Shown here piece after piece: positions 4,040-54,363 of a DNA stretch of 64,000 nucleotides. The stretch lies in the NCBI RefSeq assembly GCF_003790525.1, contig NZ_CP033635.1; one strand, given 5' to 3'. Numbering within the stretch: the stretch's first letter is position 1; each line of letters opens with the position of its first letter. Source of the stretch: Escherichia coli. GTDB lineage: Bacteria; Pseudomonadota; Gammaproteobacteria; Enterobacterales; Enterobacteriaceae. The notes beneath the pieces are model-generated. The model did no database searches. It had not been told where the DNA came from and saw only the letters and a list, made by a program, of their open reading frames with translations. Position numbers and translations under genes: made by a program.

Positions 4040-5887
4040 ATGTTGCTTAATATGATGTGTGGTCGTCGGCTGTCGGCAATCAGTTTGTGCGTGGCCGTAA
4101 CATTCGCTCCACTGTTCAATGCGCAGGCCGATGAGCCTGAAGTAATCCCTGGCGACAGCCCGGTGGCTGTCAGTGAACAGGGCGAGGCACTGCCGCAGGC
4201 GCAAGCCACGGCAATTATGGCGGGGATCCAGCCATTGCCTGAAGGTGCGGCAGAAAAAGCCCGCACGCAAATCGAATCTCAATTACCCGCAGGTTATAAG
4301 CCGGTTTATCTTAACCAGCTTCAACTGTTGTATGCCGCACGCGATATGCAACCCATGTGGGAAAACCGTGATGCTGTTAAAGCCTTCCAGCAACAGCTGG
4401 CAGAGGTGGCGATTGCCGGTTTCCAGCCGCAGTTTAATAAATGGGTAGAGTTACTGACCGATCCTGGTGTTAACGGGATGGCACGCGACGTCGTGCTCTC
4501 TGATGCGATGATGGGCTATCTCCATTTCATTGCAAATATTCCGGTCAAAGGCACTCGCTGGCTATATAGCAGTAAACCTTATGCGCTTTCAACGCCGCCG
4601 CTTTCGGTGATTAACCAATGGCAGCTGGCGCTGGATAAAGGTCAATTGCCGACGTTTGTTGCAGGTCTGGCACCGCAGCATCCGCAATATGCAGCGATGC
4701 ATGAATCGTTACTGGCCTTACTCAGTGACACCAAACCGTGGCCCCAACTGACCGGCAAAGCAACGTTGCGCCCAGGGCAGTGGAGTAACGACGTACCGGC
4801 GTTGCGCGAAATATTGCAACGCACAGGCATGCTGGACGGGGGGCCGAAAATTACTCTACCTGGCGATGACACGCCAACTGACGCGGTAGTCAGCCCATCC
4901 GCTGTTACTGTTGAAACAGCAGAAACTAAGCCGATGGACAAGCAAACGACGTCTCGTAGTAAACCTGCGCCTGCCGTTCGTGCCGCCTACGATAATGAAC
5001 TGGTGGAAGCCGTTAAACGTTTTCAGGCATGGCAAGGATTGGGAGCAGATGGCGCTATTGGCCCGGCAACGCGTGACTGGTTAAACGTAACGCCCGCCCA
5101 GCGTGCTGGCGTGTTGGCACTCAACATCCAGCGATTGCGCTTGCTGCCAACAGAGCTTTCTACCGGGATCATGGTTAACATTCCGGCCTATTCGCTGGTC
5201 TACTATCAGAACGGCAATCAGGTGCTGGATTCGCGAGTCATTGTCGGTCGCCCCGATCGCAAAACGCCGATGATGAGCAGTGCACTTAACAACGTAGTGG
5301 TAAACCCGCCGTGGAACGTACCACCAACTCTGGCACGCAAAGATATTCTGCCGAAAGTGCGCAACGATCCGGGATATCTCGAAAGCCATGGCTATACGGT
5401 GATGCGCGGCTGGAACAGCAGAGAAGCGATTGACCCATGGCAGGTTGACTGGTCTACAATCACGGCCTCGAATTTACCGTTCCGCTTCCAGCAGGCTCCA
5501 GGCCCACGGAACTCGCTGGGGCGCTATAAATTCAATATGCCGAGTTCAGAGGCCATTTATTTGCATGACACGCCGAACCACAATCTGTTCAAACGTGATA
5601 CACGCGCATTGAGCTCAGGCTGTGTGCGAGTGAATAAAGCTTCCGATCTGGCGAATATGCTGTTGCAGGATGCAGGATGGAATGACAAACGTATTTCTGA
5701 TGCGCTGAAGCAGGGCGATACGCGTTACGTCAATATTCGGCAGTCGATTCCGGTGAATCTCTACTACCTGACGGCCTTTGTTGGTGCAGATGGTCGTACC
5801 CAGTATCGTACAGATATTTACAATTATGATCTGCCTGCGCGATCCAGCTCGCAAATCGTATCGAAAGCGGAACAATTAATCAGGTAA
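4040..5887 (+). CDS. ldtD: L,D-transpeptidase LdtD (YcbB), 615 aa
   Basis: N-terminal signal peptide; C-terminal YkuD-type L,D-transpeptidase domain with the catalytic cysteine in the SSGCVRV context; length and sequence match YcbB. Confidence 0.92.
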
Positions 5888-11957: not shown

Positions 11958-13160
11958 TTAACTGGCTTTTTTAATATGCGGAAGGTCGAATGCTTTGCGC
12001 AGTGCCCGAACAAACGCTTTATCGTGGCAGATAGTTTTGCCAGGGCTGTCAGAAAGTTTCGCCACCGGTTTACCGTTACACTCAACCAACTTAATGACAA
12101 TATTCAGGGGTTTTACCTGGGGGATATCGCAGGTCAGGCGAGTCCCAATACCAAAACTTAATTGCACGCGGGAAGAGAAATGGCGGTATAGCTCAACCGC
12201 TTTGCGTAAATCCAGATTGTCAGAGAAAACCAGCGTTTTACTCTGTGGATCAATTCCCAGCTTCTCATAATGTGCAATGGCTTTTTCACCCCATTCAACC
12301 GGGTCGCCAGAGTCATGACGCAGGCCCTGATAGCGACTGGCGAACTCGACACCGAAATCACGCAGGAAAGCATCCATAGTGATGCAGTCGGTTAATGCAA
12401 TGCCAAGTTGGTCGGGATACTCTTCCAGCCAGGCAGCAAGTGCAGCTCGCTGGCTGTTGGCTAGATCCGGGCTGATTTGCTGATGCGCCTGGAACCATTC
12501 GTGTGCCTGTGTTCCCATCGGCGTGAGGGAAAGCCGGCGCGCCAGATCATAGTTGCTGGTGCCCACGAACCAGGATTCCTGTTGCAGACGCTTAACGATG
12601 GTTTCTTGTACTTCGCGAGAAAAACGGCGGCGGGTGCCAAAATCCATCAGATGGAAGCGCGACATATCAAGACCGGCGGTTAATGCCGAGAAGTCGACTA
12701 ATTTGCTTTCCAGCGTGTCGAGGGCTTGCGCAACGTCGGTCTGCGGTGAGCGATAGCGATGTACCATTTCACTGATAACCGCCAGCAAAGGAACTTCCCA
12801 GAGGATGACTTCACGCCACGGGCCGCTTAAACGAATATCCAGCTTGCCATTATCGTTGGATACGGTGACTTGTTCCGGGTTAAAGCGGAACTCGCGTAAC
12901 CAGTTAAGATAGTCGGCCTGAAAGAAAGGCAGGGCAGAGAGCCACTGATATTCATCATCCTGCAGGCGCAGGTGCTGCATCGCCTGAACCTGTTCACGAA
13001 TAGCATCGGCATAAATACCCAGCAGATCGTCACCTCGGCAACGAAACTCCGCCGCGACATGCACATCGTAATAGTGATGAAACACGGCTTGCTGCATATG
13101 CAACTTATAAGCATCTGTATCCAGCAACGAGTGCAGAACAGGAGAAGCGAATTGTGTCAT
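11958..13160 (-). CDS. pncB: Nicotinate phosphoribosyltransferase, 400 aa
   Basis: Matches PncB from [22 protein letters not shown]; start placed 16 codons inside the ORF-track start. Confidence 0.93.
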
Positions 13161-27465: not shown

Positions 27466-27551
27466 TTTTTTTGCCACAGGTCAATTCCCTTTTGGTCCGA
27501 ACTCGCACATAATACGCCCCCGGTTTGCACACCGGGAATCCAGGAGAGTTC

Positions 27552-28562
27552 ATGTACTACCCCTTCGTTCGTAAAGCCCTTTTCCAGCTCGATCCAGAGC
27601 GCGCTCATGAGTTTACTTTTCAGCAATTACGCCGTATTACCGGAACGCCGTTTGAAGCACTGGTGCGGCAGAAAGTGCCTGCGAAACCTGTTAACTGCAT
27701 GGGCCTGACGTTTAAAAATCCGCTTGGTCTGGCAGCCGGTCTTGATAAAGACGGGGAGTGCATTGACGCGTTAGGCGCGATGGGTTTTGGATCTATCGAG
27801 ATCGGTACCGTCACGCCACGTCCACAGCCAGGTAATGACAAGCCGCGTCTCTTTCGTCTGGTAGATGCCGAAGGTTTGATCAACCGTATGGGCTTTAATA
27901 ATCTTGGCGTTGATAACCTCGTAGAGAACGTAAAAAAAGCCCATTATGATGGCGTCCTGGGTATTAACATCGGCAAAAATAAAGATACGCCGGTGGAGCA
28001 GGGTAAAGATGACTATCTGATTTGTATGGAAAAAATCTATGCTTATGCGGGATATATCGCCATCAATATTTCATCGCCGAATACCCCAGGACTACGCACA
28101 CTGCAATATGGCGAAGCGCTGGATGATCTCTTAACCGCGATTAAAAATAAGCAAAATGATTTGCAAGCGATGCACCATAAATATGTGCCGATCGCAGTGA
28201 AGATCGCGCCGGATCTTTCTGAAGAAGAATTGATCCAGGTTGCCGATAGTTTAGTTCGCCATAATATTGATGGCGTTATTGCAACCAATACCACGCTCGA
28301 TCGTTCTCTGGTTCAGGGAATGAAAAATTGTGATCAAACCGGTGGCTTAAGTGGTCGTCCGCTTCAGTTAAAAAGCACAGAAATTATTCGCCGCTTGTCA
28401 CAGGAATTAAACGGTCGCTTACCGATCATCGGTGTTGGCGGCATTGACTCGGTTATCGCTGCGCGTGAAAAGATTGCTGCGGGGGCCTCACTGGTGCAAA
28501 TTTATTCTGGTTTTATTTTTAAAGGTCCGCCGCTGATTAAAGAAATCGTTACCCATATCTAA
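27552..28562 (+). CDS. pyrD: Dihydroorotate dehydrogenase (quinone), 336 aa
   Basis: Matches PyrD from [21 protein letters not shown]; class 2 DHODH. Confidence 0.95.
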
Positions 28563-41650: not shown

Positions 41651-42703
41651 TTAAGCCTGCGGCTGAGTTACAACGTCTTTGATACCTTTAACTTCGATCT
41701 CTACGCGACGATCCGGAGCCAGGCAGTCGATCAGTGCAGCACGCTGTTTCACGTTGTCACAGGTGTTGCCAGTAACCGGGTTGGATTCGCCCATACCACG
41801 TGCGGAGATTTTGTCTGCCGGGATACCTTTAGAGATCAGGTAATCAACAACGGACTGAGCACGACGCTCGGACAGAGCCTGGTTGTAAGCGTCAGAACCG
41901 ATGCGGTCGGTGTAACCCAGAACAACTACGGAACCGTCTTTCGGATCCAGGTTGCTCAGCTGGCTGTACAGCTGATCCAGAGCAGCCTGACCTTCCGGTT
42001 TCAGGGTTGCTTTGTTGAAGTTGAACAGAACGTCAGACTTCAGAGTGAAGTGCTTGGTCTGTACTTCCGGTGCCGGAGCTGGAGCCGGAGCAACTACTGG
42101 AGCTGCTTCGCCCTGACCGAAACGGTAGGAAACACCCAGGCTCAGCATGCCGTTGTCCGGACGAGTACCGATGGTGTGTGCGTCACCGATGTTGTTGGTC
42201 CACTGGTATTCCAGACGGGTAGCGATTTCAGGAGTGATCGCGTACTCAACACCGCCAGCGAAGACCGGAGAAACGCCGGTGTCGTGGTCTTTAGTGGATG
42301 CGCCACCAGGTACGTTAGACTTGGTGTCTGCACGCCATACCATACCACCCAGACGAGTGTAAACGTCCAGATCGTCAGTGATTGGGTAACCCAGTTTAGC
42401 GGTCAGCTGAACGCCCTGAGCTTTGTATGCGCCGTTGATGTTGTCGCCTTTGTACGGCATACGACCTAACCAGTCGTAACCCATTTCAAAGCCAACATAC
42501 GGGTTAACCTGGTAACCACCAAAAGCACCTGCACCCAGTTGGTTTTCGTGGGTCGGACCATTGTTAGGAATAAAACCAGTGTCATGGTACTGGGACCAGC
42601 CCAGTTTAGCACCAGTGTACCAGGTGTTATCTTTCGGAGCGGCCTGCGCTACGGTAGCGAAACCAGCCAGTGCCACTGCAATCGCGATAGCTGTCTTTTT
42701 CAT
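41651..42703 (-). CDS. ompA: Outer membrane protein A, about 350 aa, non-K-12 loop allele
   Basis: Signal peptide [21 protein letters not shown], 8-strand barrel, APAPAPAP hinge, OmpA-like peptidoglycan-binding C-domain; loop regions ([22 protein letters not shown]) differ from K-12 as I recall it. Confidence 0.95.
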
Positions 42704-43058: not shown

Positions 43059-43568
43059 TTAATGATACAAATTAGAGTGAATTTTTAGCCCGGAAAGTTG
43101 TCTCGTTGCGTGAGAGGAAGCGCTTACCGGACGCATAATAAACCCCATAGCGTTACCTTCATTTGCCGCATCAACAAGTTCAGCATGCTCTTCTTCAGTC
43201 AAATCATCTGCCAACCAACCGATCACCACACTGTAATTGCCCGTGCGTAAAGCGCGAACCATTGACTCCACGGTGTGGCAAGGGGAGAGCTGGCTAATCT
43301 GCATTACTTTCGTTAAGGGTAGCCCAGATGCCTGAACCCATTCGCGACTCAGTTTTTGTTGCGGTGTTAACCAGAGTTGCCAGCGCGATTGCTGACCGAG
43401 TTGCTGTAACAATGGCAACAGTAGAAGTTGCGTCATCATGGGCTGATCTTCGCGATAGACAACTTCACTGATAAGCCCGGCTGTAGTGTTTTCCGTAGAG
43501 ACACGCGCAATTTTACTTGCTGCGGATGAGAACGACGAAGAACGATGTGCATAGCCTGAAGTGTACAT
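43059..43568 (-). CDS. sulA: SOS cell division inhibitor SulA, 169 aa
   Basis: Matches SulA from [41 protein letters not shown]. Confidence 0.94.
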
Positions 43569-43590
43569 AATCAATCCAGCCCCTGTGAGT

Positions 43591-43610
43591 TACTGTATGA
43601 ATGTACAGTA
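43591..43610 (-). promoter_or_regulatory. LexA (SOS) box in the sulA promoter
   Basis: tactgtatgaatgtacagta: a perfect CTGT-N8-ACAG palindrome with TA-rich spacer, 23-42 bp upstream of the sulA ATG. Confidence 0.85.
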
Positions 43611-43786
43611 CATCCAGTGACAACAAAGATCAACCCTATTTTCGGAAAGAGCCTCGCAAATTTTGTCGTTGGTGACGGGAAAACATAAATTAATCTTGCC
43701 CCTTAAGAATAAGTTGCCTATTTTCGTAGTTAACGGATCCGTTAATGTGAATCATTCTTTTATGTTATGATTTTAAAAGGAATTTT

Positions 43787-54275: not shown

Positions 54276-54363
54276 TGGCGGAAGCGCAGAGATTCGAACT
54301 CTGGAACCCTTTCGGGTCGCCGGTTTTCAAGACCGGTGCCTTCAACCGCTCGGCCACACTTCC
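54276..54363 (-). tRNA. serT: tRNA-Ser (UGA anticodon), 88 nt, class II tRNA with long variable arm
   Basis: Minus-strand sequence GGAAGTGTGGCCGAGCGGTTGAAGGCACCGGTCTTGAAAACCGGCGACCCGAAAGGGTTCCAGAGTTCGAATCTCTGCGCTTCCGCCA: acceptor stem pairs, anticodon loop CT-TGA-AA, encoded CCA end. Confidence 0.93.

Follow-up and report, generated by a model that had tools for sequence, protein, structure and literature searches.

The question raised by this locus is whether the 20-bp inverted repeat lying just upstream of sulA is the LexA operator of that gene, as the original prediction proposed, or whether it has another origin or another target. The sulA operator has counted among the textbook SOS boxes since the 1980s and is in wide use as an SOS reporter. 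The window, by which we mean the whole stretch of 64,000 nucleotides that was analysed, is E. coli chromosome, and the gene order around the site is matP-ompA-sulA-sxy-yccS. A stretch of 851 bp around the site is shared at 100% identity with SMS-3-5 and other strains; it was found in approximately 5,424-5,425 of the 5,426 complete E. coli genomes. In addition, four plasmid-typed E. coli records carry the sulA-sxy region (e.g. NZ_OZ547091.1, 262 kb); these may be mislabelled chromosomal fragments or large chromids.

The product of the gene next to the repeat matched the SulA family of Pfam with 171 bits (E=6e-51), and the RefSeq annotation places its ATG at 43568 on the minus strand. The start in the program-made list of open reading frames differs from the annotated one, as that frame begins at an in-frame upstream TTG (43574). 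The divergent neighbour is sxy (tfoX), whose product matches TfoX_N and TfoX_C of Pfam; both genes share an intergenic region of 218 bp, in which the repeat lies 176 nt from the sxy ATG. The features of the sulA side are as follows:

43059..43568, minus strand: coding sequence of the regulated gene, sulA (169 aa; RefSeq annotation, 100% DNA identity; Pfam PF03846, SulA)
43569..43590, minus strand: 5' leader with the ribosome-binding region ACTCACAGGGGCTGGATTGATT, from the box to the ATG
43591..43610, minus strand: LexA (SOS) box of sulA; TACTGTATGAATGTACAGTA on the plus strand, TACTGTACATTCATACAGTA on the sulA strand
43600, minus strand: single difference from K-12 MG1655, at box position 11 (T here, C in K-12)
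43605..43610, minus strand: probable -10 hexamer TACTGT, inferred, coinciding with box positions 1-6
43628..43633, minus strand: probable -35 hexamer TTGATC, within the invariant block GTTGATCTTT (43634-43625)

Some other features of the window should be mentioned. The ompA gene is located at 41651-42700 (minus strand), and the OmpA encoded there differs from K-12 OmpA in surface-loop segments. The RefSeq protein accession of SMS-3-5 OmpA is not that of K-12 OmpA, and the differences look like known ompA allelic variation. Rfam recognised a PyrD leader at 27484-27557 (plus strand, 97.9 bits) and a tRNA at 54276-54363 (minus strand), the latter assigned by ARAGORN to tRNA-Ser with anticodon tga; neither feature is unusual for a chromosome.

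The 20-mer tactgtatgaatgtacagta was recovered letter for letter at the predicted position. The CTGT-N8-ACAG core attributed to it is present at 43593-43608 (CTGTATGAATGTACAG), and its 8-nt centre, ATGAATGT, is AT-rich as described, with 6/8 positions being A or T. Read on the sulA strand, the box consists of two perfect 7-bp inverted arms flanking a centre of 6 nt. The gap between the box and the ATG is 22 nt and the A of the ATG is the 23rd base, so that the proposed distance of 23 bp is right when that A is counted. When compared with the gammaproteobacterial consensus TACTG(TA)5CAGTA, 17/20 positions match: the box shares the palindrome with 7-bp arms, all 12 outer positions, A7 and T14, and its three mismatches are C8 (T in the consensus), T11 (A) and C12 (T). 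The description of the box as near-perfect is therefore adequate for the two arms, but not for the three central positions, nor for the strength of the motif, which is intermediate (see below).

How far such a motif exceeds chance depends on how much of it is considered. The pattern CTGT-N8-ACAG had one match in the 64 kb, the expectation being 0.77, and at least one match was present in 54 of 100 shuffled sequences; the 16-bp core alone is thus uninformative and not above chance. A 20-mer within three mismatches of TACTGTATATATATACAGTA occurred once in the window and in none of the 100 shuffles. The LexA matrix scan suggested in the original prediction was carried out by means of the heterology index (HI), with a Berg-von Hippel / Lewis-type matrix built from 17 K-12 LexA boxes (PMC3009722, Table 4), sulA being left out. 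This index measures divergence: a low value denotes a good match, and known sites reach about 12-13. The original prediction had named a low score as its refutation, which is backwards, since a low HI supports a site and values above approximately 13-15 speak against it. It should be noted that our absolute values differ from the published ones because the matrix was rebuilt and is not the Lewis 1994 matrix; the K-12 allele of the sulA box obtained 6.05 asymmetric and 7.30 symmetrised, whereas the two published values are 4.65 (PMC2994835) and 5.4 (PMC11228462).

On this scale, the window box obtained an HI of 5.72 asymmetric and 6.41 symmetrised and led all other sites of the window by about 6-8 units, the next-best 20-mer on either strand of the 64 kb having 11.85 and 14.37, respectively. 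It was also lower than the lowest values found across 30 first-order Markov simulations of 64 kb (7.53 and 10.22). The comparison with known SOS boxes placed it within the range of the 18 K-12 boxes, which span 0.3-8.9 asymmetric and 1.7-11.8 symmetrised, at approximately the 12th-13th rank. The box is thus a clear but mid-ranking match, and those of umuDC, sbmC and tisB are stronger on paper, as judged by HI (PMC11228462, Table 1). The second-best LexA-like 20-mer of the window, ATCGGCATAAATACCCAGCA at 13005-13024, is the one with the asymmetric HI of 11.85; it has no left half-site CTG, its HI falls within the range of simulated sequence, and it is not credible as an SOS box.

The conservation of the site was evaluated by a footprint search that was not circular, as the query pattern, ATGTAYACNTCNGGNTAYGC, was taken only from the coding sequence of the SulA N-terminus (MYTSGYA). 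The search covered bacterial contigs with one genome per species and returned 102 loci, of which 60 were evaluable sulA orthologues, one had too little upstream DNA and 41 were unrelated. The orthologues came from about ten genera (Escherichia, Citrobacter, Salmonella, Enterobacter, Kosakonia, Trabulsiella, Pseudescherichia, Yokenella and other Enterobacteriaceae); the unrelated chance matches, from Clostridia, Flavobacteria, archaea and others, served as controls. A LexA box with symmetrised HI of 7.3 or less was present 20-22 nt from the ATG in 60/60 orthologues, whereas none of the 41 control loci had a site better than HI 15.5 in the 120 nt upstream. In the alignment, box positions 1-7 (TACTGTA) and 13-20 (ATACAGTA) were invariant except for one A2 to G change in E. 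albertii, and the variation was confined to positions 8-12. By comparison, the ten spacer columns upstream of the box, after an invariant TTT, were only 39-59% conserved, and the leader element GGGCTGGA was mostly kept across genera.

The same layout, TTGATC, 17 bp, box, 20-22 nt and ATG, was thus shared with the sulA operators of other Enterobacteriaceae. For Salmonella sulA, one box located 21 bp from the ATG with an HI of 1.49 has been published (PMC8072944), and the gap of 21 nt observed in our two Salmonella loci agrees with that report. At box position 8, 49/61 sequences carry T, which is closer to the consensus and gives symmetrised HI values of 1.8-3.6. The C8 found in K-12 and in the window, which adds more to the HI of both boxes than any other position, looks derived because T8 is the majority state in the other genera; C8 is also present in the Citrobacter amalonaticus/sedlakii group.

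Regarding the promoter, TTGATC precedes TACTGT at a spacing of exactly 17 bp in 61/61 sequences, and the block containing TTGATC was invariant. The two hexamers are likely the -35 and -10 elements of the sulA promoter, an assignment that we base on conservation and fixed spacing and not on score: TTGATC-17-TACTGT scores 7/12 against the consensus and was one among several equally weak candidates in a relaxed scan, and the promoter and terminator scan detected neither a terminator nor, on the sulA strand, a sigma-70 site. This arrangement predicts that sulA transcription begins within the box, near 43598; a literature search for an explicit sulA transcription start or for an overlap of the -10 with the box gave nothing usable. 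The right arm has no promoter role in this arrangement, so its invariance would be explained by contact with LexA. Both arms, together with the -35 at fixed spacing, appear from the alignment to be under purifying selection.

Other explanations of the repeat have to be weighed against these data. That it is a chance inverted repeat of an AT-rich intergenic region, devoid of any regulatory role, would agree with the near-chance frequency of the core pattern, but it is contradicted by the absence of the full 20-mer from the shuffles, by an HI better than that of the rest of the window and of every simulation, and by arms that are invariant across 60 orthologous promoters next to a poorly conserved spacer; we consider it vanishingly improbable. 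Nearly as improbable is a role of the repeat as a hairpin of RNA or single-stranded DNA that would influence termination, translation or stability, whether in the sulA leader, in an antisense transcript or in one from the sxy side. The repeat can indeed fold into a stem of 7 bp closed by a loop of 6 nt, with -7.1 kcal/mol for the sulA strand and -9.0 kcal/mol for the plus strand; however, the sulA-strand fold resembled that of shuffled sequences (z = -1.3, with 23/200 folding equally well), and with the leader included the z value was -0.07. Nor was there a terminator-like site in the scan or an Rfam family at the site, and arms that are invariant across genera, without compensatory changes, are the signature of a site contacted by a protein. 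Moreover, if transcription begins inside the box as predicted, the mRNA would lack the full hairpin.

A further alternative, which we regard as very unlikely, is that the divergent sxy is the main target, or a further target, of the box. The argument in its favour is location, as the box lies within the shared intergenic region at the distance from the sxy ATG given above. Against it, the CRP-S site of sxy (43643-43658) is placed between the box and sxy, and its promoter-proximal half-site is on the sxy side (PMC6728893); because that half-site faces sxy, the sxy promoter would be further to the right and the box well upstream of it. In addition, sxy is absent from the LexA-dependent genes of PMC11228462 (Table 1), and the distances kept fixed by the box are those to the sulA -35 and ATG. 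Since gene identity (Pfam and RefSeq), motif score (best HI in the window), position and conservation across genera all agree, we conclude that the 20-mer at 43591-43610 is almost certainly the LexA operator of sulA, repressing the gene until DNA damage occurs. In this respect the original prediction was correct. The site is genuine and highly conserved, but it was already known and is nothing out of the ordinary.

The CRP-S block itself deserves a comment. It reads TGCGA-GGCTCT-TTCCG on the minus strand, within a 22-bp site at approximately 43640-43661, and it was as strongly conserved as the LexA box across the ten or so genera. In 60/61 sequences, 9 bp separate its end from the sulA -35 that follows, and its centre would precede the predicted sulA start by about 52 bp. 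A literature search for a link between sxy, CRP-S and sulA found nothing relevant.

We also compared the operator with that of K-12, whose sulA SOS box, TACTGTACATCCATACAGTA, is published (PMC3009722). Over 261 bp, which include the whole sulA-sxy intergenic region, the window and MG1655 differ in one base, the T at box position 11. The K-12 sulA (sfiA) box is at the same locus and gene, with the same neighbour genes and the same position with respect to the -35 and the ATG, and 19/20 of its bases match. The term textbook applied in the original prediction thus holds for the sulA operator as such, but the exact K-12 sequence is not reproduced because of T in place of C at 43600. The T11 box is slightly closer to the consensus than the C11 box of K-12 (HI 5.72 vs 6.05; symmetrised, 6.41 vs 7.30).

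The frequency of the alleles was determined in complete E. coli genomes with 41-bp queries, centred in such a way that the 28-base word of megablast must span the variable positions. The operator proved to be polymorphic at box positions 8 (43603) and 11 (43600), and all four combinations occur:

C8/C11 (K-12), TACTGTACATCCATACAGTA: 3,880 genomes, symmetrised HI 7.30
C8/T11 (window), TACTGTACATTCATACAGTA: 843 genomes, symmetrised HI 6.41
T8/C11 (GE3 type), TACTGTATATCCATACAGTA: 498 genomes, symmetrised HI 3.22
T8/T11, TACTGTATATTCATACAGTA: 42 genomes, symmetrised HI 2.34

About 160 of the E. coli genomes with the stretch were matched by none of the four 41-bp allele queries. Sampling of genomes without a match to the first two queries had brought to light the third common allele as well as a few minor ones; the latter were TGCTGT… in strains M217 and 167 and CACTGTAT… in strain Z1322HEC0003. 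In strain ZH142 (NZ_CM125651.1) there is a 5-bp deletion, aligned to 43608-43612, which truncates both the left arm and the putative -10 and raises the HI to 13-14.6, the sulA coding sequence being intact. This deletion may be a real lesion of the promoter and operator, or it may be an assembly error in a whole-genome-shotgun chromosome.

With regard to the mechanism, a LexA dimer would occupy both CTGT half-sites in TACTGTA-N6-TACAGTA, and the left arm would also serve as the -10 hexamer, 17 bp downstream of the -35. Because the likely -10 lies within the box, bound LexA would shut out RNA polymerase, and sulA would remain silent. Upon DNA damage, self-cleavage of LexA stimulated by RecA would free the operator, and the SulA then made would block the assembly of the FtsZ ring until repair is complete.

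The binding of LexA, the LexA-dependent induction by damage and the late timing are known from literature on the K-12 allele, which differs in one central base, and they are extended here by analogy. The tight repression by LexA that had been predicted is supported in this way by what is published on the near-identical K-12 operator: it has an HI of 4.65 and “binds LexA tightly” (PMC2994835), and in another study an HI of 5.4 was accompanied by a 20-fold induction by AZT and a 15-fold dependence on LexA cleavage (PMC11228462, Table 1). Furthermore, sulA is not induced in lexA3 (PMC9505508). The sulA and umuD promoters have been classified as “late”, requiring the highest UV dose; LexA dissociation has been measured with a sulA operator probe, and sulA+ is not viable when lexA is deleted (all in PMC5999292). 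Our search found no published measurement or experiment on the exact T11 allele, which we infer would behave like the C11 allele.

As a discovery, the sulA box carries little weight; its value is that of a positive control, in which a real regulatory site was recognised from the sequence alone. Mildly new is only the polymorphism of the operator within the species, across which the predicted HI runs from about 2.3 to 7.3. The catalogue of natural operator alleles could nevertheless serve users of PsulA reporters, as well as the comparison of SOS thresholds between E. coli lineages. It is conceivable, if rather doubtful, that the operator alleles alter the off-rates of LexA and in this way set a lineage-specific dose of DNA damage for division arrest. 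If this were true, consequences for filamentation, persistence and antibiotic tolerance could follow, the T11-carrying B2/F lineages being an example.
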